From Escherichia coli (GTDB taxonomy: Bacteria > Pseudomonadota > Gammaproteobacteria > Enterobacterales > Enterobacteriaceae): a DNA stretch of 64,000 bases. Positions 3,149 through 63,954 of the stretch are shown piece by piece. Both the position numbers and the translations under genes were made by a program. The notes under the pieces are model-generated. The model did not search any database. It had not been told where the DNA came from and worked only from the letters and a program-made list of their open reading frames with translations. The stretch lies in assembly GCF_044324875.1 (NCBI RefSeq), contig NZ_CP172185.1, one strand, 5' to 3'. The first letter of the stretch is position 1. Each line of letters begins with the position of its first letter.

Positions 3149-4444
<1,296 letters not shown>

Positions 4445-4544
4445 CTACATTTGCCAACTGTATGCTACGCCTGTGTTGCCGCTTCTCTGGCCCACGGTTC
4501 GCTGTCGTTGTAGGCCCGGTAGCATGTGTACCGGGCCAGGGTTG

Positions 4545-6479
4545 TTAAGACGATTTACGTACGCGCAAATACCATTCGCACAGTAAACGCACCTGTTTAC
4601 GGGTGTAGCCTTTTTCCATCATACGGTCGACAAAATCGTCGTGTTTCTTCTGCTCGTCGGTTGACGTTTTGGCGTTAAACGAAATAACCGGCAACAGCTC
4701 CTCGGTATTGGAGAACATTTTCTTCTCAATAACCGTGCGCAGTTTTTCATAGCTGGTCCAGTTAGGATTGCGTCCGCTGTTATTCGCTCTGGCGCGCAGT
4801 ACGAAGTTAACAATCTCGTTGCGGAAATCTTTTGGATTACTGATCCCCGCCGGTTTCTCGATTTTCTCCAGCTCGGCGTTAAGAGACTCGCGGTCAAACA
4901 ACTGCCCGGTATCCGGATCGCGATACTCCTGATCCTGAATCCAGAAATCCGCGTAGGTAACATAACGGTCGAAAATGTTTTGCCCATATTCGGAATAGGA
5001 TTCAAGGTAGGCCGTCTGGATCTCTTTGCCGATAAACTCGGCATATTTCGGGATCAGATAACCTTTCAGGAACTCCAGATAGCGTTCTGCCTGCTCTTGC
5101 GGGAACTGCTCGCGCTCGATCTGCTGTTCCAGGACGTAGAACAGATGGACCGGGTTTGCCGCCACTTCTACATGATCGAAGTTGAACACGCGGGAGAGGA
5201 TCTTAAACGCAAAACGCGTCGACAGACCGTTCATCCCTTCATCGACACCGGCGTAGTCACGATATTCCTGATACGACTTGGCTTTGGGATCTGTGTCTTT
5301 CAGACTTTCGCCATCATAAACCCGCATCTTTGAATAAATGCTGGAGTTTTCTGGCTCTTTAAGGCGCGAAAGAATGGAAAAACGTGACAGCGTTTCCAGC
5401 GTGCCAGGGGCGCAGGGGGCGTGAGTCAATTCACTGTGATTAAGCAATTTCTCGTAGATTTTGATCTCTTCGGAAATGCGCAAGCAATACGGCACCTTCA
5501 CGATGTATACACGATCGAGGAAGGCTTCGTTGTTTTTGTTATTACGGAAAGTGACCCATTCGGATTCGTTCGAGTGGGCGAGAATAATCCCGTTGAACGG
5601 CAGGGCGGAGATACCTTCCGTCCCGTTGTAGTTACCTTCCTGAGTGGCGGTTAGCAAGGGATGCAGCACTTTAATCGGTGCTTTAAACATCTCAACGAAT
5701 TCCATGATCCCCTGATTGGCGCGGCACAGCGCACCGGAATAGCCGTAGGCGTCCGGGTCATTCTGCGCGTAGTGTTCGAGTTTACGAATATCGACTTTCC
5801 CAACCAGCGCGGAGATGTCCTGGTTGTTCTCATCACCGGGTTCCGTTTTGGCGATAGCAATTTGTTGCAGAATTGACGGCCAGACCTTCACTACCCGGAA
5901 CTTAGTGATATCGCCACCAAATTCATGCAGGCGTTTTGCCGCCCACGGCGACATGATGGTGCCGAGATAACGGCGAGGAATGCCATACTCTTTTTCCAGA
6001 ATCTGCGCATCTTCCTGCGGATTGAAAAGACAGAACGGATGATCGTTGACCGGGCTACGCTCACCGTTGGCGCTCAATACATAAATCGGTACGAGCTGCA
6101 TTAATGATTTCAGTCGCTCAGCAAGCGATGATTTACCCCCACCCACAGGCCCCAGCAGATACAGGATTTGTTTCTTCTCTTCCAGCCCCTGAGCCGCGTG
6201 TTTCAGATAAGAGACAATCTGTTCAATCGCGTCTTCCATGCCGTAAAACTCTTCAAATGCCGGATAACGTGCAATGACCCGGTTAGAAAAGAGTCGAGAA
6301 AGTCTGGGTTCCTGGGCTGTATCGACCATGACAGGCTCACCGATAGCCATCAATAGCCGCTCAGCCGCGTTGGCATAAGCACTGCGATCTTGCCGACAAG
6401 TGGTAAGAAACTCCTGCAGTGTGAACTCTTCGTCCTTGGCAGCTTCATATCGCTGGCGATAGTGATCGAATATATTCAT
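4545..6479 (-). CDS. yeaG: PrkA-family serine protein kinase YeaG
   Basis: 644-aa ORF with Walker-A-like GPVGGGKSS motif; recognised YeaG sequence. Confidence 0.92.
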   Translation of the reverse strand: MNIFDHYRQRYEAAKDEEFTLQEFLTTCRQDRSAYANAAERLLMAIGEPVMVDTAQEPRLSRLFSNRVIARYPAFEEFYGMEDAIEQIVSYLKHAAQGLEEKKQILYLLGPVGGGKSSLAERLKSLMQLVPIYVLSANGERSPVNDHPFCLFNPQEDAQILEKEYGIPRRYLGTIMSPWAAKRLHEFGGDITKFRVVKVWPSILQQIAIAKTEPGDENNQDISALVGKVDIRKLEHYAQNDPDAYGYSGALCRANQGIMEFVEMFKAPIKVLHPLLTATQEGNYNGTEGISALPFNGIILAHSNESEWVTFRNNKNNEAFLDRVYIVKVPYCLRISEEIKIYEKLLNHSELTHAPCAPGTLETLSRFSILSRLKEPENSSIYSKMRVYDGESLKDTDPKAKSYQEYRDYAGVDEGMNGLSTRFAFKILSRVFNFDHVEVAANPVHLFYVLEQQIEREQFPQEQAERYLEFLKGYLIPKYAEFIGKEIQTAYLESYSEYGQNIFDRYVTYADFWIQDQEYRDPDTGQLFDRESLNAELEKIEKPAGISNPKDFRNEIVNFVLRARANNSGRNPNWTSYEKLRTVIEKKMFSNTEELLPVISFNAKTSTDEQKKHDDFVDRMMEKGYTRKQVRLLCEWYLRVRKSS

Positions 6480-6914
6480 GGTATGCCGTCCTTTCGTTTT
6501 TTAGCACAGGTTAAGAGCCGTTCATATGAATAGTAGAGGCTCCCGGAAGAGGTAAACTGAACGACGTCTCTTGCTAAAACACAGCAACTCTCATGCCATT
6601 TTATCGACGATGAGAACAACGTGCCCGGTGATACACCTTCAAAATTAAGCGTAGATGGCAAATGGAAAACTTGCCTGCACGGCTTTCTTAATTTCAATGG
6701 CATATCAACAACTCATCCATAAATTTTGCATAATTAATGTAAAGACCAGGGTCGCCAGTAACGCTAAATTCATTTGGCTGTAAGCGCGGTGTCATCCGCG
6801 TCAGGAAAATTAAACAGTTACTTTAAAAAATGAAAACGTAAAAAGGTTGGGTTTCGATGTATTGACGGGTAAACTTTGTCGCCCGCTAAACATTTGTTTA
6901 AGGAATGATTAATT

Positions 6915-7661
6915 GTGACCAAACTCAAACTTCTGGCACTTGGAGTGCTTATCGCAACGTCTGCAGGCGTAGCGCACGCTGAAGGTAAATTTTCCCTGGG
7001 CGCAGGCGTAGGTGTCGTTGAACACCCATATAAAGATTACGATACCGATGTTTACCCAGTACCGGTAATCAACTATGAAGGCGATAACTTCTGGTTCCGT
7101 GGCTTAGGTGGTGGTTACTACCTGTGGAATGACGCAACGGACAAACTTTCAATTACCGCTTACTGGTCGCCGCTTTACTTCAAAGCTAAAGACAGTGGCG
7201 ATCACCAAATGCGTCACCTGGATGACCGTAAGAGCACCATGATGGCTGGTCTGTCTTATGCTCACTTTACCCAGTACGGTTACCTGCGTACCACCCTGGC
7301 TGGCGATACCCTGGATAACAGCAACGGCATTGTCTGGGATATGGCCTGGTTGTATCGTTACACCAACGGCGGCCTGACCGTGACTCCGGGTATTGGTGTG
7401 CAGTGGAACAGCGAAAACCAGAACGAATACTATTATGGCGTATCGCGCAAAGAGTCCGCTCGCAGCGGTCTGCGTGGCTATAACCCGAACGACAGCTGGA
7501 GCCCTTACCTGGAGCTGAGCGCCAGCTACAACTTCCTCGGCGACTGGAGTGTTTACGGTACCGCGCGCTACACCCGTCTGTCTGATGAAGTTACTGACAG
7601 CCCGATGGTGGATAAATCCTGGACTGGCCTGATTTCTACCGGGATCACCTACAAATTCTGA
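6915..7661 (+). CDS. mipA: MltA-interacting outer membrane protein MipA
   Basis: 248-aa ORF with signal peptide (MTKLKLLALGVLIATSAGVAHA), beta-barrel-like composition and C-terminal Phe; GTG start. Confidence 0.92.
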   Translation: MTKLKLLALGVLIATSAGVAHAEGKFSLGAGVGVVEHPYKDYDTDVYPVPVINYEGDNFWFRGLGGGYYLWNDATDKLSITAYWSPLYFKAKDSGDHQMRHLDDRKSTMMAGLSYAHFTQYGYLRTTLAGDTLDNSNGIVWDMAWLYRYTNGGLTVTPGIGVQWNSENQNEYYYGVSRKESARSGLRGYNPNDSWSPYLELSASYNFLGDWSVYGTARYTRLSDEVTDSPMVDKSWTGLISTGITYKF

Positions 7662-7692
7662 TAATGCATCTTTCCAGGGCATTTTGTGCATA

Positions 7693-7718
7693 AAAACAGG
7701 GCGTCACGCCCTGTTTTG
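7693..7718 (+). terminator. Rho-independent terminator downstream of mipA
   Basis: GC stem acagggcg/cgccctgt with 3-nt loop followed by TTTTG, about 30 bp after the mipA stop. Confidence 0.5.
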
Positions 7719-7750
7719 CATTACGGTGGTGCAATACCTGGGAGGAAACA

Positions 7751-8039
7751 ATGCAACAAAAAATGATTCAATTTAGTGGCGATGTCTCACTGCCAGCCAT
7801 AGGGCAGGGAACATGGTATATGGGCGAAGATGCCAGTCAGCGCAAAACAGAAGTAGCTGCACTACGCGCGGGCATTGAACTCGGTTTAACCCTCATTGAT
7901 ACCGCCGAAATGTATGCCGATGGTGGTGCCGAAAAGGTGGTTGGGGAAGCATTAACCGGTCTGCGAGAGAAGGTCTTTCTCGTCTCTAAAGTCTATCCGT
8001 GGAATGCTGGCGGGCAAAAAGCGATAAATGCATGCGAAG
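7751..8039 (+). pseudogene. yeaE: yeaE (aldo-keto reductase) 5' fragment, interrupted by IS insertion
   Basis: N-terminal 96 codons of YeaE (MQQKMIQFSGDVSLPAIGQGTWYMG...AINACE), then the frame runs into IS sequence and stops at 8056. Confidence 0.85.
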
Positions 8040-55653: not shown

Positions 55654-55826
55654 ATGGAGCAAAAACATTATCCGCAGAACCCCGCAGATCATTTTCAAAT
55701 GAGTTAAACTTCAAATGGTTAAACTGGTTTTGCAACCAGGAGCCTCTGTTGCCCGTATTGCCCGGGAACACGATATCAATGATAACCTCCTGTTCAAATG
55801 GCTCAGACTCTGGCAGAACGTAAGGT
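55654..55826 (+). pseudogene. Transposase helper (HTH OrfA-type) remnant of an unidentified IS
   Basis: Short frames encoding MEQKHYPQNPADHFQMS-stop and ...LQPGASVARIAREHDINDNLLFKWLRLWQ, resembling IS OrfA HTH segments; interrupted by stops. Confidence 0.3.
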
Positions 55827-55904
55827 AAAGGGAGATGAAAAAGGCAATAGCAGAACTGAGTGACAGTGAAACCATTCTGGCGTACAGGGTTGGATGGTGA
55901 AACT

Positions 55905-55938
55905 GATAAAAAACCCTCTGAAAATTCTGTCAGAGGGT
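55905..55938 (-). terminator. Candidate rho-independent terminator (minus strand)
   Basis: Perfect 8-bp stem ccctctga/tcagaggg with 8-nt loop, followed on the minus strand by T6. Confidence 0.35.
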
Positions 55939-56649
55939 GTAGTCAAAAATGGTAGATATTTACGATGCAGTAATGCTTTCACTCCGGTAATTAATTTCCG
56001 TGATTAACTGCTTTCGATCAATAAAGGAATTGCAAAAGTGTGATCTTGTTCACGACATTGTGGATGATAATATGCCTGATGTCTGAATCCGGAAACAGTG
56101 ATCTGGCGGTTTCATGTGAAGTTGACGGATAAAAAATCCGCACGACCAGACAGACGTGCGGTTTACGAAATTCGTAACAAGAGGCTTTTCTACGGATCAC
56201 GTGGTGCGTGCCACGTGAAATTTTTGTAGCGCAAAATGTGTGATGTGTAAATACAAGGAAGGAAAAAAGTTAAATCGGTGGAAGTCCATGCCTGCCACAT
56301 GTATGTCTGCATTCCTCGTTTTGAACAGAATTCTCACCAGACATCGTGAATTTCTCATTCAATCATCAGAGATATTACCCAGGATTTTTATTGTTTTGTG
56401 ATAGCAGTACTTTAAATGTTCAGATGCTAAAATAAGCGCGCTTATTATAATTATAGTTATGATGTTTTATCTGTATGTATTTTAATGATTTTCGCGTCAT
56501 TGCTTTTCTGCTGCTTAAATTGAAGGCGCATATTATACACAATAATATTCCTGGCATTATTAAATTAATAAAAGAGGATTCTTATCACTGTATTTTTGCT
56601 CCGCACTACCGTTCTGGCTGGTGAAGTAATAATACAGGAGAATAACAGA

Positions 56650-58197
56650 ATGCTTAAAAGACGTGATGCTTTTTTAAAGAAAAGCGCGCTGGCAGTGAGT
56701 GTGGCCCTGCTGCTCTCGGCTCAGGCTCAGGCTCAGGATATTTTAATCGGACCGATTGAACCTGGCGAAGATAATAGCTTTCTTGTTGGAGAATCAGTAG
56801 CTGGCCGTTCGATTGATAAAGTAAGAAATGTATGGTTGATTGGTGATGATTCTTTTTTATTAGACTCAAACAGGACTGTGCTTTTGGGGAATAATTCTGA
56901 TGTTGTGAACTCTCCGGGAAGTGTGAGTCTGGGGCATGATGCACTTATTGCTGACTCTGAATGGGGGACTGTTGCAGGAAAAGAAGCGTCACTTATTTCT
57001 TCTCGTCAGAGCTCGGCAATTGGTGCGTTTTCATCTGTGCAGGATTCTACCAGTTCTGTAGCTCTGGGCCATGGCTCACAGGTGTCGGGAGAAAATAACG
57101 TGGTATCTGTTGGTGCCGGGCCTGAGGGATATGGAGAGAGTGTCAAAGGAGCACCGGAAACCCGCCGGATTATAAATGTGTCTGATGGTATCAATAACAC
57201 AGATGCAGCGACGGTAGGGCAACTGAATGAACGATTTGATGATGCACAGGTCTTTTTGTTGCAGACGAATGAAAGAATTGACGAGACAGATAAACGTCTT
57301 TCAACAGTTCATGCTGAACTCAGCAGGGATATTATTGCAGGCACATCGGCAGCGGTGACGTATACAGATGTAACAGCGCTTGCACTTCAGGATGAGATAA
57401 AGGATGGGACGAACAAAGTACGTGATGAGTTGAAATCACAGGGAGACAGTCTGCGTGGTGAGATAGGCGGTGTATACAGAGATGCCCGTGCTCATACTGA
57501 CAGTCAGGTCACAGCAGTACGTGATGAACTGAAGGCAGAGGGAGACAGTCTGCGCGGTGAGATAGGCGGTGTATACAGAGATGCCCGTGCTCATACTGAC
57601 AGTCAGGTTACAGCAGTACGTGATGAACTCAGCAGGGATATTATTGCAGGCACATCGGCAGCGGTGGCGTATACGGATGCATCTTCTCTTGCTCTTCAGG
57701 ATGAAATAAAAGAAAAAGCGGATGAAACAGTTCAGGTTTCCCGGGCTTATACAGATAAAAGTGTACGGGATGCCCGTAAAGAAGCGAAAAGCCAGGCAGA
57801 ACATCTCAGCGATGTGCTTGTGAAGAACAGGGCGCAGACGGATGCAGCAATAGCCTCAAATACAGCAGCGATAAGGAATAACAGTCATCGTCTGGATTTG
57901 ACGGAAGCCTGGCAGAAGATGGCGACAGAGAGAATGAATAATATGCAGGAGCAGATTAAAGAGAACCGGAAGGAGTTAAGGGAGAGTGCAGCCCAGAGCG
58001 CGGCACTGGCAGGTCTTTTCCAGCCATACAGTGTTGGAAAATTTAACGCGACAGCAGCCGTTGGTGGTTACCGTGATGAGCAGGCCATTGCGGTGGGCGT
58101 GGGCTACCGTTTCACAGAGAATGTGGCAGGAAAAGTTGCAGTTGCTGCAGGTGGGTCATCCGCATCGTGGAATGCTGGTGTGAATTTTGAGTTCTGA
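56650..58197 (+). CDS. YadA-type trimeric autotransporter adhesin (515 aa; Eib/Saa-like size class)
   Basis: Signal peptide [29 protein letters not shown], repetitive coiled-coil stalk, and C-terminal YadA-like anchor ending ...[19 protein letters not shown] 9 nt upstream; AT-rich 5' region. Confidence 0.8.
57313..57730 (+). repeat. In-frame tandem and nested repeats inside the adhesin stalk
   Basis: A 105-bp unit (...[33 protein letters not shown]) occurs twice in tandem (about 57424-57528 and 57529-57633), flanked by two copies of a second roughly 100-bp unit ([16 protein letters not shown]...ALQDEIK) at 57313 and 57625. Confidence 0.7.
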
Positions 58198-58258
58198 CAG
58201 GTCAGGATTTAGATATCTGTCCCGGGGGGAGTCCCCCGGGATATAATGAGGTACAGAG

Positions 58259-58714
58259 ATGCTGGATATAATCCTGGCGACGAGAGATATTTATTTTGAA
58301 AAAGCCCTGCGAGAGATATTTGGAACCGTAAGCAGTCGAATCAGATATATAGAAGATGCCATATCAGACAGAAGAAGGGTGCAGTCAGGCAGGTCATTCA
58401 GATATTATTTTGTATTCTGTGATGATGAGTATACAGATATTGTTCGTATTCTTTTTACCGGAGAGGCCTGCTGTATTCTGAATAAGTCGATGCTGAATCT
58501 GAGAGCGGCCGGAGGTGTGTTGACGCTGGAAGAGCGCAGAGCGGTACTGAACCGGTATTACAGAGGTTTAAGTATTGCGGAGATTACAGAAGAGACGGGG
58601 CAGAATGACAAGACGGTATACGGTCATCTTCGTCGTGCACTGCAGCGGTCTGGATTCCGGAAGGGGCGTTTTATAAAGGGGAGAGAAGCGGCGGGGGATT
58701 CAGGTGTTGAATAA
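58259..58714 (+). CDS. Putative transcriptional regulator with C-terminal sigma-70 region 4 / LuxR-type HTH
   Basis: 151-aa ORF; C-terminal LTLEERRAVLNRYYRGLSIAEITEETGQNDKTVYGHLRRALQ resembles sigma region 4/GerE-type HTH; 60 bp downstream of the adhesin gene. Confidence 0.45.
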   Translation: MLDIILATRDIYFEKALREIFGTVSSRIRYIEDAISDRRRVQSGRSFRYYFVFCDDEYTDIVRILFTGEACCILNKSMLNLRAAGGVLTLEERRAVLNRYYRGLSIAEITEETGQNDKTVYGHLRRALQRSGFRKGRFIKGREAAGDSGVE

Positions 58715-58788
58715 TGTATCTTATATTGTGATATTGAACCGCCCCGGGAATCCTGGAGACTAAACTCCCTGAGAAAGAGGTAAACAGA

Positions 58789-59115
58789 ATGACTAAAAAT
58801 ACTCGTTTTTCCCCCGAAGTCCGTCAGAGGGCGATTCGTATGGTTCTGGAAAGTCAGGGCGAATATGACTCACAGTGGGCGGCAATTTGTTCCATTGCCC
58901 CAAAGATTGGCTGTACACCGGAGACTCTGCGTGTCTGGGTACGCCAGCATGAGCGGGATACCGGAGGCGGTGATGGCGGGCTCACCACCGCTGAACGTCA
59001 GCGTCTGAAAGAGCTGGAACGTGAAAATCGTGAACTGCGCCGCAGTAACGATATCCTTCGCCAGGCTTCCGCTTATTTTGCGAAGGCGGAGTTCGACCGC
59101 CTCTGGAAAAAGTGA
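58789..59115 (+). CDS. IS629 transposase OrfA
   Basis: 108-aa [63 protein letters not shown]... matching IS629 OrfA. Confidence 0.9.
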
Positions 59116-60002
59116 TGCCACTGCTGGATAAGCTGCGTAAGCTGTACGGGGTCGGACCGGTATGCAGTGAACTACATATTGCCCCGTCAACGTATTACCA
59201 CTGTCAGCAACAGCGACATCATCCTGATAAACGCAGTGCCCGTGCGCAGCGCGATGACTGGCTGAAGAAAGAGATACTGCGCGTATACGATGGGAATCAT
59301 CAGGTATACGGTGTGCGTAAAGTCTGGCGTCAGTTGTTACGGGAAGGAATCAGGGTAGCCAGATGTACAGTGGCGCGCCTCATGGCGGTTATGGGACTTG
59401 CCGGTGTTCTCCGGGGTAAAAAGGTCCGCACTACCGTCAGCCGGAAAGCCGTTGCCGCAGGCGACCGCGTAAACCGTCAGTTTGTGGCAGAACGTCCTGA
59501 CCAGTTGTGGGTGGCTGATTTTACTTACGTCAGCACATGGCAGGGGGTCGTCTATGTGGCGTTCATCATTGATGTGTTTGCCGGATACATCGTGGGGTGG
59601 CGGGTCTCATCGTCTATGGAAACGACATTCGTGCTGGATGCTCTGGAGCAGGCGTTATGGGCCCGTCGACCGTCCGGCACAGTCCATCACAGTGATAAAG
59701 GTTCTCAGTATGTATCGCTGGCCTACACACAGCGGCTTAAGGAAGCCGGATTACTGGCATCAACAGGAAGTACTGGTGACTCGTATGACAACGCGATGGC
59801 GGAGAGCATCAATGGCCTTTACAAAGCGGAGGTAATACACCGTAAGAGCTGGAAAAACCGGACAGAAGTGGAGCTGGCCACACTCACGTGGGTGGACTGG
59901 TATAACAATCGACGATTGCTGGAAAGGCTGGGCCATATCCCACCGGCAGAAGCAGAAAAAGCTTATTATGCTTCCATCGGAAACGATGATCTGGCAGCCT
60001 GA
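59112..60002 (+). CDS. IS629 transposase OrfB (DDE integrase core)
   Basis: 296-aa ORF overlapping orfA by 4 nt; motifs [16 protein letters not shown] and [15 protein letters not shown]. Confidence 0.9.
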
Positions 60003-60410
60003 GTTCACAGATAAAACACTCTCCAGGAAACCCGGGGCGGTTCATATCGGTGCTGCTGCTGTTATTTTTTGTTGTATTTGTGACGAATGGTTAAGAATAA
60101 AACATGAGTTGGTGATTATCAGGACAGGTTGCTTGTATATGAAGATAACAAAGGCGGCATTTATTTTTGCGCTGTCAGTGTGGAGTGTTGCTGTGATATG
60201 TCTTTTATTATTTGTACTGGTTGTTCTGGGATAGCTATAGTGGAATTATTATTTTTTTAAGACTATGGTTTATATTTTTATTCGGCAATATTTCTGTAAA
60301 CAATTAAATATCAGAAAGGCGTGTTGTATGCGTGAACACGCCTGAGTATGTATACAGAGATTGTTAATTTGGAGAGAATAATTACAGTTGTTATTTATTT
60401 GACGTCCTGA

Positions 60411-60695
60411 TTAGTGAAAAAACCAGTCATCAGCAGTTTCCCAGACTTCCTGCAGCGTTTCCTGTATGAACTTCTGAGCGTTTTCTTTATCTACGGCTCT
60501 TAAAATGGTCAGTCCGTCATTACTGGCGGATTTTACTATAACCTCCACATCGTCATATCGTTTTCTGGTACGGCGAGACATTTCCTGTTGTAGAGCAGGT
60601 ACAGAGCCTTTTGGCATTTTGCTGAATTTTTCTTTAGCGATACAGATCTCAATACGAATAAAAGTCCCTCTGCACTGTGTTATTTTTATCTGCAT
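60411..60695 (-). CDS. DinI-family protein (DNA-damage-inducible protein I-like)
   Basis: C-terminus [18 protein letters not shown] matches the DinI signature [25 protein letters not shown] resembles the DinI N-terminus MRIEVTIAK; true start within the 94-aa track ORF is uncertain. Confidence 0.6.
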
Positions 60696-61541
60696 GAATA
60701 AACAGTGTCAATAGATAAGATTGGTTGTAAGGAATCAATGGAGCATGTATGGGACATTTTTAACCGACTAAATTCACAGAAGTTCGTAGGCATCGAAAAC
60801 GAATCATCTGTCCAACCCTTTAAAAACGGCTCTCTTGGACGATTTTCGTCGTTTTTTAAAATGCAACAAGTACGTTGTTCATATGATTTCATTCCATCTC
60901 ATGGGACTGGCGCTACCTTTGTTTGATCTCCCTTGGTATGAGAATTTTTCTGAAATTTTTGGACATTTAGTAGGGTTCTGGTCCATTGAAATTGTTCGCA
61001 GATATTTACGAAACAGAATTACTCATGAGCCAGACCTTGAGATCCATTTAGGCTCAAACAGATAATGTATTGAATTATAAAAATGGCGCAAATACAGTGC
61101 CATTTTTATGGGGTAAATGTTACTTATTTCCTTCTGATACAGGAGAAAAAAGGTCTGATGCAGGTAGCCAATGAGCCTGTAACTCCACTTCGATACTGTA
61201 GAACTGGAGATTTCTACGGAGGAAGACACGTTGTTGCTGGAAGTGAGGAGAAATCTCGGGTGATGTTGAATCATGTTAATACATCAGTAGCACTGGATAT
61301 CGGGAGAACGGTACTACCAGAGGGACAGCATACGCCCGCTACAGTTTGGCGGGCGTAAGGGCATTAAGATTTTTAGAGAGAGCGTTCAGAATTCTGTGTC
61401 ACGTTAAAAATTCTACAGTGTCATCACAGTATTCAGTCGCCCTTCAAAATAAATGGCTAACTGCGACAATGTCAAATTCCAGCTCTGGATCGGCATTGTC
61501 CATTTTTTCTGTACGTTCATCAGCCCCAGATAAAGCAGCTT

Positions 61542-61981
61542 CTACAGACTATTTTCATTCGGGAAAGCACCTTTGGTTTTGGTCAGTTTCCTGAACTGGC
61601 GATGGACTGATTCAATCGCATTTGTGGTGTAAATGACCTTGCGGATATTTGCCGGATAGCGGAAGTATGCTGACAGGTTTTCCCACTTGCGACGCCACGA
61701 CTGAAGCACCACCGGATATTGCTGGCCCCATTTCGCCTCCAGCTCATCCAGCGCCGTTTCTGCGGCTTCTTTCGACACCGCGCGATATACCGGCTTCAGG
61801 TCGGCCATGAACGCTTTGTGGTGTTTTGCCCTCCAGATTCAGCGCCAGCACCGTGTAAACGACCTTGCTCTGGTAGCGGCCATCCTCCCTGATTTTATAG
61901 TGAATGGCATCCAGCCATACGAAGGGGTAAACCTTCTCCAGCGGGCGCTGTTGCCACTGTTTTAACTCAGGAATGACCTTA
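61542..61981 (-). pseudogene. IS256-family (mutator-type) transposase remnant, internally deleted and truncated by the IS66-family insertion
   Basis: Minus-strand frames encode ...IPELKQWQQRPLEKVYPFVWLDAIHYKIREDGRYQSKVVYTVLALNLEGK and, in another frame, MADLKPVYRAVSKEAAETALDELEAKWGQQYPVVLQSWRRKWENLSAYFRYPANIRKVIYTTNAIESVHRQFRKLTKTKGAFPNENSL; the segment between them is too short. Confidence 0.7.
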
Positions 61982-62018: not shown

Positions 62019-63557
62019 TTATTCAGCTGGCAGTGCTATGCGCCACGGAAGCAGTTCGCTGACCCGGTTGACCGGCCAGTCTGCTATGACGCCAAGCACA
62101 TGGCGAAGGTAGCTTTCTGGATCCACGTCATTCAGTTTGCACGTCCCTATCAGGCTGTACAGTAGCGCTCCCCGCTCACCACCATGGCCAGAGCCGAAGA
62201 ACAGGAAGTTTTTACGACCCAGACTTACCGCCCGCAGGGCATTTTCAGCGATGTTGTTGTCGATTTCCACCCAGCCATCGTTCGCATAGTACGTCAGTGC
62301 CGGCCACTGGTTAAGTGCGTACGCGAACGCCTTCGCCAACTCTGAGTGTCGCGACAGGGTCTTCATCTTTTCACGCAACCAGCTTTCCAGGGATTTCAAC
62401 AGCGGTTTCGTTTTTCGCTGACGTTCAGCAAGCCGCTGCTCTGCCGGCATTCCCCTTATATCCGCCTCTATGGCGTACAACTGACCGATCTGCTCCAGGG
62501 CTTCTTCCGTCAGTGCTGACGGGATGCGGACGTGCACATCGTGGATCTTTCGGCGGGCATGAGCCCAGCAGGCAGCTTCCGTTATCCCACCATTGCGATA
62601 CAGCTCGTTGAACCCGGCGTACGCATCCGCTTGCAGCACACCGCTGAAGCAAGCAAGATGAGTCTGCGGATGGATGCCTTTTCTGTCCGGGCTGTAAGCG
62701 AACCACACTGCAGGTGCCAACGCTGACCCGGCATTGCGGTCATCACGAACATACGCCCACAACCGCCCGGTCTTCGTCTTCTTATTACCCGGCATCAGTA
62801 CCTGGACCGGGGTATCATCGGCATGGAGTTTGCCGTCAGTCATGACATAGCCATGAAGCGCCTCTTCCAGCGGAGACAGCAGCCGGCAGCATGCATCCAC
62901 CCAGCCCGACAGCAGTGAACGGCTCAGCTCCACACCTTGCCGGCCGTATATTTCTGACTGGCGATACAGCGGGGTGTGCTCTGCATACTTCGAGGTCAGC
63001 ACGCGGGCCAGCAGCCCCGGTCCGGCGATACCCCGCTCGATGGGCCGCGAAGGTGCAGGTGCCTGCACGATGGCATCGCACTGAGTACAGGCATGTTTTT
63101 CCCGTACCGTCCGGATAACCCGGAAGGCGCTACGCATCAACTCCAGCTGTTCGGCGGTATCCTCGCCCAGATAGCTCAGTGAACCGCCGCAGTTCGGGCA
63201 GCACGGCGCCGCAGGCAACAGTCGCTTTTCGTCACGGGGTAGTGATTCAGGGAACGGCTTACGGATGCGGGTCTGACGCAACGGACGCTGTACTGCCGGG
63301 TCATACACCCTACCAGTCAGCGTATCGCTCTCTTTCTGAAGCCGGTTCAGATCGGCTTCCATTTGTGCGATACGGCGGGAGACTTTTTCGGAACGACTGC
63401 CGAAGTTCATCCGGCGGAGTTTATCCAGCTGCGCCTGCAGATGGTCTATTTCGCGCTCCCGGTTGCTCAGCTTTTCCTGCAGGGCGTGGATCAGCGCTTC
63501 CTGTTCGGCCAGGCGCTGTTTCAGCAGGAAGATGTCGTCAGAAGAGATGTCGTTCAT
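62019..63557 (-). CDS. IS66-family transposase (large ORF)
   Basis: 512-aa ORF with N-terminal coiled coil ([20 protein letters not shown]), zinc-finger CCPNCGG...CTQCD and DDE core typical of IS66 transposases. Confidence 0.85.
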
Positions 63558-63606
63558 AAGCCCGTATTTTACCGGGCTTATTCTGTGACAACCAGGATAA
63601 AGAGAT

Positions 63607-63954
63607 TTACAGCATGGTCAGGGAGGTCAGCAGCCGCTTAGGCTGTCGCCAGTCGATACCTTCCAGCAGCATCGCCAGCTGCGCCTGTGTAAGGAACACT
63701 TTGCCATCACGGGCTGACGGCCAGGCGAAGCGCCCACGCTCCAGCCGTTTGGTCAGGAGGCACAGTCCGTCACCGGTGGACCACAGCAGTTTAACCTGAC
63801 TGCCGCTGCGGCCCCGGAAAATGAAAACATGGCCGGACATGGGATCGTCTTTCAGCGCCGTCTGTACTTTCGCAGCCAGGCCGTTGAAGCCATTTCTCAT
63901 ATCGGTGATACCGGCAACCAGCCAAATTTTGGTCCCGGAAGGTAAAGGGATCAT
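63607..63954 (-). CDS. IS66-family accessory protein TnpB (orf2)
   Basis: 115-aa [34 protein letters not shown]...[36 protein letters not shown] matching IS66 Orf2. Confidence 0.88.

Follow-up and report, generated by a model that had tools for sequence, protein, structure and literature searches.

The window, a stretch of 64,000 nucleotides from Escherichia coli, begins with chromosomal genes (types PrkA/YeaG, GGDEF, SppA and TopB); a CP4-57-like island comes next. In the right-hand part of the island, a reading frame of 94 codons runs on the minus strand from 60695 to 60411, as given by the list of open reading frames, and its end carries the DinI signature; the strand had not been named in the earlier note. 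The DNA around this frame is collinear with the right ends of prophages and contains the following features:

55821..61981, no strand assigned: prophage-derived segment (minus the IS), with the 3' stub of a DUF4376 gene, a YadA-like adhesin gene, a sigma-like helix-turn-helix (HTH) gene, the dinI-like gene, a YagU-like fragment and an IS256 fragment, delimited by collinearity with prophage right ends
56650..58197, plus strand: gene for a YadA-like trimeric autotransporter adhesin, a native neighbour (Pfam YadA_anchor, E=3e-16; PDB 2LME, the YadA anchor)
58259..58714, plus strand: sigma-70 region-4-like HTH gene, a native neighbour (Pfam Sigma70_r4_2, E=2e-7)
58735..60044, plus strand: IS629-like element of the IS3 family, 1310 bp, with OrfA and OrfB reading frames and terminal inverted repeats, delimited by BLAST break points and by the empty site in contig L006
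60411..60659, minus strand: dinI-like coding sequence of 82 codons plus TAA, counted from the ancestral start (249-nt PGAP homologues occupy exactly the same span in TUM9803 and STEC1585; the alignment to DinI is end to end)

Membership in the DinI family, which the earlier note had claimed from the C-terminal signature, was confirmed by every profile and structure comparison made. The Pfam DinI profile (PF06183) matches the reading frame over its entire length (positions 1-63 of 63; E=4.1e-18, 65.9 bits against a cut-off of 24.2), and PHROG 189, 'RecA filament binding protein DinI', matches with E=4e-26. When PDB sequences were searched with phmmer, DinI itself (1GHH/7YWA) was the sole significant match (E=6.4e-12), and BLASTP aligned the product with E. 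coli DinI end to end, with 45% identity over 82 residues. Alignment to DinI and to prophage DinI-like proteins, the check that the note had proposed, thus yields homology over the full domain and well beyond chance. The NCBIfam DinI model PRK10597 (the NF007893 equivalog) gives E=5.5e-18, and its 65.2 bits lie below the equivalog cut-off of 111; hence, the protein belongs to the family without being an orthologue of the chromosomal dinI product. Judging by these scores, the gene is a phage-type paralogue and not the host dinI.

A structural model of the 82-residue form was obtained with AF2 from 12 family sequences (pLDDT 85.7). The predicted elements are strands at residues 2-8, 39-45 and 49-53 and helices at 9-14, 19-34 and 58-80, so that the model shows the small alpha/beta fold with a long C-terminal helix known from 1GHH. 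Foldseek returned 1GHH and 7YWA as best matches (TM 0.79-0.83, rmsd of about 2 A, probability 1.00), and no other PDB entry was matched at E<=0.001. DinI touches RecA through a hydrophobic pocket (L13, L21, W71, W77 and F78) and acidic residues (E24, E69 and D76) (Gao et al. 2023, PMC9926225). In the family alignment, the counterparts of these residues are M15, L23, W73, W79, F80, E26, E71 and D78: seven of the eight are identical, and the eighth is a conservative replacement (L13 to M).

The neighbourhood of the gene was compared with that of its phage relatives. The right end of lambdoid prophages (TUM9803, STEC1585 and L005-L007) reads, in order, tail tip J, tail fibre, DUF4376, YadA-like adhesin, sigma-like HTH, dinI-like gene on the opposite strand, and host DNA. 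The window is 97% identical to such right ends (L006, L008 and L097) over 55821..58734 and 100% identical over 60044..61981 (1938 bp); the HTH gene is called 'sigma factor-like helix-turn-helix DNA-binding protein' by PGAP in both TUM9803 and strain 144. Relatives of the dinI-like protein are encoded in 133 phage records, with identities of 84% in PhiR12, 83% in P-EibC, 80.5% in BP-4795 and JLK-2012 and about 65% in many Stx phages. P-EibC keeps the order of the slot as well: orf-191, eibC, orf-156 and, further on, an unannotated dinI-like reading frame. The phage origin that the earlier note had proposed for the right-hand part of the island is therefore borne out by synteny, by the high identity to lambdoid right ends and by the many phage records with relatives. 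The chromosomal genes and the CP4-57-like island on the left indicate that a piece of prophage has moved into the island. From this synteny, the right end of the island is a captured prophage tail-end module made of adhesin, regulator and dinI.

The same note had described the gene as isolated among IS elements. IS elements do flank it; however, its native prophage neighbours still adjoin, and the IS629-like element is merely inserted between the HTH and dinI-like genes, with a TAT target duplication at 58732..58734 and 60045..60047. Rfam places the ALIL frameshift pseudoknot of this element at 59070..59186. On the other side, homology to prophages stops at 61981, where an element of the IS66 family begins. 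This element (62019..63954, minus strand; a 512-aa transposase plus TnpB) cuts off the prophage block, and the window ends inside it. A fragment of an IS256-family transposase (61542..61808, minus strand), which covers only positions 276-360 of Pfam Transposase_mut, is part of the prophage-derived block. Related islands, for instance the one in strain 144, keep the adhesin and HTH genes and lose homology at 60246, before dinI. A plasmid origin of the impC-like kind was considered and rejected, as no plasmid record matches the locus and no impAB/umuDC-like genes lie downstream.

Additional observations were made in the vicinity of the gene:

(i). In P-Eib prophages, the place of the adhesin gene is taken by the eib (immunoglobulin-binding) genes. 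Orthology with Eib was discarded: likeness to EibC is limited to the anchor/stalk end (the C-terminal 225 aa or so, 40% identity). Tandem repeats of 99 bp are found at 57417..57629, and among the products called in otherwise near-identical prophages the shortest has 291 aa and the longest at least 715 aa, while several have 485-581 aa; this spread suggests variation in the number of stalk repeats.

(ii). A 31-codon reading frame (60139..60234, plus strand), located just downstream of the HTH gene, would encode a very hydrophobic peptide, MKITKAAFIFALSVWSVAVICLLLFVLVVLG, without a Pfam match. All close relatives of the module keep it, among them the island of strain 144, from which dinI is missing. 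The peptide could be a small membrane peptide or a toxin; the copies are too alike to judge selection.

(iii). Rfam IS009, an enterobacterial sRNA candidate, matches 61071..61288 (plus strand) at full length (96 bits, E=9e-22), a score below the gathering score of 117. Directly upstream lies a 76-codon fragment (60835..61062, plus strand) that resembles the C-terminus of DUF1440/YagU. Together they look like what remains of a yagU-type gene and the region 3' to it, carried inside the prophage between dinI and attR.

Examination of the 5' side of the gene revealed an unusual start. The signals that surround the coding sequence, all on the minus strand, are the following:

60657..60659: position of the start codon, ATT in the window and ATG in TUM9803 and STEC1585
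60665..60670: Shine-Dalgarno sequence GAGGGA, 5 nt before the ATT; relatives keep the motif as agagggactttt-ATG
60675..60681: remnant of LexA box 2 (its right half-site, CACAG) with the junction of a 13-nt gap, TACTGTATACAAA being missing, as found in alignments
60682..60711: sigma-70 promoter, with TTGACA at 60711..60706, an 18-nt spacer and AAAAAT at 60687..60682 (10 of 12 in a promoter scan)
60688..60707: LexA box 1, weakened, found by pattern matching; the 20-mer is CACTGTTTATTCATGCAGAT, with its CTG-N10-CAG core at 60690..60705
60693..60695: ATG that opens the 94-codon reading frame, judged a false start (between the -35 and -10 hexamers, within LexA box 1, without a Shine-Dalgarno sequence)
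60317..60343: intrinsic-terminator-like hairpin with a 9-bp G+C-rich stem followed by UUUCUGAUAUUU, 70 nt after the stop codon (RNA fold of 60290..60412, z=-2.7)

A canonical start (ATG, GTG or TTG) is absent from the conserved position in the window. The start codon is ATG at 79 of 80 homologous loci from IMG/VR and GTG at the remaining one; ATT occurs at none of them, and the intact products all have 82 aa. Likewise, 55 homologous loci yielded 30 distinct sequences spanning the upstream region and the start, and all 30 have ATG at this position. Aside from the start codon, the coding sequence of the window is identical, base for base, to that of the ATG allele in L096. Homology to DinI starts at residue 13-14 of the 94-codon frame, in NCBIfam and phmmer alignments alike. 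The earlier note was thus correct in calling the N-terminal extension non-homologous and in distrusting the listed start; the N-terminus that it left uncertain can now be placed at the ancestral start, the ATT at 60657..60659.

The origin of the extension becomes apparent when the promoter is compared with that of the relatives. In these, TTGACA is followed by a spacer that contains LexA box 1 (CTGTTTATCCATACAG) and by an A-rich -10; LexA box 2 (CTGTATACAAACACAG) then covers the point where transcription is expected to begin, and the Shine-Dalgarno sequence and ATG come last. Of the 30 distinct upstream regions of homologues, 29 retain the two-box promoter with its TTGACA and A-rich -10. Where the window has the upstream ATG, relatives read ATA (CCATACAG in relatives, TCATGCAG in the window). 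The ATG at 60693..60695 therefore exists because of an A-to-G change, and it is in frame because of the 13-nt gap. Change of the genuine start from ATG to ATT, together with these promoter mutations, explains the odd N-terminal 'extension'. By homology, the 82-codon frame is the real gene, and the 94-aa form is a by-product of promoter mutations.

Public records differ in the length deposited for the identical allele (94, 82 and 68 aa), and the NCBI annotation of L097 begins at the ATT; the two other lengths deserve consideration. A true product of 94 residues, carrying a 12-residue extension from the ATG at 60695, would correspond to the longest ATG-initiated frame and is the form used by one public annotation (GCP69289.1). 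We regard it as highly improbable: its ATG, located between the -35 and -10 hexamers, precedes the point at which transcription is predicted to begin and lacks a Shine-Dalgarno sequence; the extension has no homologue, all relatives having 82 aa, and DinI homology begins exactly at residue 13-14; and both the ATG and the frame stem only from the A-to-G change plus the 13-nt gap. Fusion to an antirepressor domain, as in phage 186's Tum protein, was also discarded because the extension lacks homology and is too short; neither Pfam nor phmmer detected such a domain in the frame. Translation from the internal ATG at 60618..60620 (Met14 of the 82-aa form) would produce a 68-aa protein truncated at its N-terminus. 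This ATG is the first canonical start downstream of the promoter, and one public record is so annotated (MCV8054670.1). However, the truncated protein would miss strand beta-1 (residues 2-8) and the helix at residues 9-14 of the predicted fold, the ATG is preceded by a weak A-rich stretch without a clear Shine-Dalgarno sequence, and almost every relative has the same methionine as an internal residue. We give this form marginally less credit still than the 94-residue one, and retain the 82-codon frame.

The strength of the LexA boxes was estimated with HI-like scores. For these, a matrix was assembled anew on the basis of 28 E. coli LexA sites; it reproduces known HI values only roughly, so that scores are approximate and only relative differences should be read. 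With this approximate matrix, box 1 of the window (CTGTTTATTCATGCAG) scores 12.0, compared with 5.5 for the ancestral CACTGTTTATCCATACAGTT, and most of the loss is due to the A-to-G change next to CAG. A value of 12.0 is, in the same approximate matrix, what the weakest sites accepted for E. coli reach; box 1 is nevertheless the second-best LexA-like site that the rebuilt matrix finds within the 64-kb window. Scores of box 1 in relatives range from 3.7 to 10.3, and most relatives have approximately 4-8 for both boxes by the rebuilt matrix. Relatives carry an intact box 2, TACTGTATACAAACACAGTA, with values of 4.4-8.2 in most of them according to the rebuilt matrix, whereas the 13-nt gap takes out the left half and the centre of this box in the window. 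A LexA box of the form CTGT-N8-ACAG, for which the earlier note had suggested looking upstream of the gene, was thus found only in part: one weakened CTG-N10-CAG lies in the promoter spacer, next to the stump of a second box, and the strict pattern is missed by one base. The motif CTG-N10-CAG alone is uninformative, with 40 matches in the window.

Two other LexA-like sites were noted. The best 20-mer of the whole window (AACTGGTTTTGCAACCAGGA, 55722..55741, HI-like score of 9.8 by the rebuilt matrix) lies about 80 bp to the left of the start of prophage homology and may be due to chance. Another CTG-N10-CAG, at 60342..60357 on the plus strand (CTGAGTATGTATACAG, 14.5 by the approximate matrix), adjoins the right arm of the terminator, with which it shares one base, and is probably fortuitous.

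Upstream of the gap, the window is approximately 80% identical to the STEC1585-type allele; the downstream part shows no difference from the TUM9803/L096 type. The location of the gap at the junction of two allele types makes misaligned recombination between them a possible cause, and the 13-nt gap may have derived from such an event. Folding of the 5' untranslated and start regions did not reveal any special structure (z=+0.6). Downstream of the dinI-like gene, no reading frame is found on the same strand before the IS, and the next genes converge on the terminator; by this arrangement, the gene is monocistronic.

Comparison with known systems places the gene in its own family and highlights what is peculiar to the window allele:

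(i). E. coli K-12 DinI (1GHH; 7YWA is its complex with the RecA filament) resembles the window protein in length (81 versus 82 aa), sequence (the 45% identity given above), predicted fold (TM of about 0.8) and, putatively, an SOS-type promoter. In contrast, the window copy belongs to a prophage-derived module, its start codon is ATT and its operator is damaged; its relatives have two LexA boxes.

(ii). The DinI-like proteins of lambdoid and Stx prophages (BP-4795 dinI, JLK-2012, PhiR12, P-EibC, Stx1/Stx2; PHROG 189) are its own family, with 65-84% identity and the same position: on the opposite strand, behind the tail-fibre/adhesin genes, where the prophage ends on its far right. They have ATG (GTG in one case) and both LexA boxes; the window allele has ATT and a single, weakened box.

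(iii). The dinI homologues of Salmonella Gifsy-1, -2 and -3 are also prophage-borne. They are provided with LexA boxes and induced by DNA damage; they are LexA-controlled, and nalidixic acid induces them 4.6- to 23-fold (PMC3121763; PMC8072944). Gifsy dinI is, however, the first gene of an operon with an antirepressor gene (gfoA, gftA) and irsA, near the replication genes, while the window gene, situated where the prophage ends, is monocistronic and has a terminator of its own. An operon of the Gifsy type, with an antirepressor frame and irsA downstream of dinI, is absent from the window locus.

(iv). In the temperate phage 186, Tum contains a DinI-like module that LexA controls (PMC3121763). 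In this 146-aa protein an antirepressor domain is fused N-terminally to the DinI-like C-terminal half; the window frame has instead 12 non-homologous codons, which are probably untranslated.

The distribution of the ATT allele was also examined. The exact 94-aa frame was detected on at least 21 public contigs, and the complete prophage that carries the allele has potB, potA, pepT and roxA as neighbouring host genes. Carriers differ by approximately 2% in the flanking host genes, whereas divergence is close to nil from the end of potB up to and including dinI, an indication that at least four E. coli backgrounds harbour one and the same element with the ATT allele. IS insertions vary among carriers (none in L006, a different site in L005 and L007); hence, the lesions are older than the IS629 insertion of the window. 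The ATT allele was absent from complete RefSeq E. coli genomes, plasmids and IMG/VR contigs. The window-type upstream flank CAACCAATCTTATCTATTGACACTG had no match in IMG/VR or among GTDB species representatives, and the pattern for starts with a third base other than G, AGAGGGAYTTTTATHCGTATTGA, had none in IMG/VR and one unrelated chance match in JGI metagenomes. Intermediate alleles (the gap with an ATG, or the ATT with intact boxes) were found neither among the homologous loci nor in pattern searches.

Two side observations concern the carriers L005-L011. Around positions 4400-8000 of the locus, a gene for an alpha/beta-hydrolase (261 aa) and a fragment of an IS256-family transposase lie between dinI and potB. 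Divergence among them is about 2% in host genes and about zero from approximately position 4500 on, which sets the boundary of the element at the end of potB.

Damage to genes of this family is not restricted to the ATT allele. Three IMG/VR contigs (L038, L039 and L043) carry a nonsense allele with TAA or TAG at codon 29, and in L052 an IS1 (InsA by Pfam) is inserted between the SOS promoter and the Shine-Dalgarno sequence of the dinI-like gene. These alleles fit sporadic loss of a dispensable accessory gene. The kind of gene is itself already known: DinI-like genes are frequent in prophages and have been annotated, and public databases contain identical sequences.

The interpretation that we favor, and consider likely, is that the locus holds a lambdoid-prophage dinI-like accessory gene of 82 codons with damaged start and operator, which is probably a hypomorph or a nascent pseudogene rather than a normal SOS gene. 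The putative history would be as follows. The gene would have been brought into the island with its native neighbours from the right arm of a lambdoid prophage, and IS elements now flank it. In the ancestral state, which the relatives show, it would have been a typical SOS gene with a strong promoter, box 1 in the -35/-10 spacer, box 2 over the transcription start, a Shine-Dalgarno sequence and ATG. Three linked lesions would then have altered it: ATG to ATT at the start; the 13-nt gap, which removes the left half of box 2; and the A-to-G change, which weakens box 1 and creates an ATG. The last two would have given rise to the 94-codon frame, whose ATG precedes the predicted transcription start. 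LexA is thus predicted to hold transcription weakly, and translation from AUU would reach a few per cent of the normal level. In E. coli reporters, AUU initiates with 1-2% of the efficiency of AUG (bioRxiv 10.1101/063800).

The protein, if made, would be expected to behave as DinI does. DinI lies in the groove of RecA-ssDNA filaments, which it stabilises at approximately stoichiometric level, while an excess inhibits UmuD cleavage and recombination (PMC6590174; PMC9926225). By homology, the product is expected to bind the RecA nucleoprotein filament and to modulate its stability and co-protease activity: a low dose would stabilise filaments, and a high dose would block the co-protease functions of RecA.

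Certain observations go against a hypomorph or nascent pseudogene. The reading frame is intact and, apart from the start, identical to ATG alleles, without signs of prolonged decay; the Shine-Dalgarno sequence and its spacing are intact as well, and AUU is a genuine albeit rare start codon in E. coli, used by infC and pcnB. Furthermore, the presence of the allele in complete prophages of at least four backgrounds is a sign of tolerance at the least, and the allele could be functional. One may therefore ask whether the lesions represent an adaptive re-tuning, in which loss of LexA control would leave a RecA modulator, harmful at high dose, constitutively transcribed, and the AUU start would be a down-mutation that compensates for this and permits low, constitutive, IF3-sensitive synthesis of a fully functional DinI-like protein. 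Intactness of promoter, Shine-Dalgarno sequence, frame and all RecA-contact residues would suit this explanation, and so would the coincidence of operator and start-codon lesions on one allele within about 50 bp and the occurrence of the allele in whole prophages of at least four divergent host backgrounds; the reported inhibition of UmuD cleavage and recombinase activity by excess DinI (reviewed in PMC6590174) would provide a reason to keep the dose low. We consider it unlikely, however: no intermediate allele was found by which to order the events; the promoter is a mosaic with the gap at its junction, so that one sloppy recombination event could explain the operator changes without selection; and the near-zero divergence of the element points to recent spread, which is equally compatible with neutrality. 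A more specific proposal, that ATT and broken operator are a co-selected pair through which a RecA modulator formerly induced by SOS is now produced constitutively, in very small amounts and at a level set by IF3 discrimination (as in infC) instead of by LexA, is a speculation to which we assign a slightly smaller chance. A hypomorph or nascent pseudogene thus stands as our preferred reading.

For annotation, the value of these observations is that the homologous frame has 82 codons from the ATT, the 94-aa form being an artefact. If the co-selection proposal were true, the allele would be a small natural example of an SOS modulator re-tuned by choice of start codon, and a resident prophage or island could pre-set the stability of RecA filaments and hence the induction threshold of co-resident prophages.
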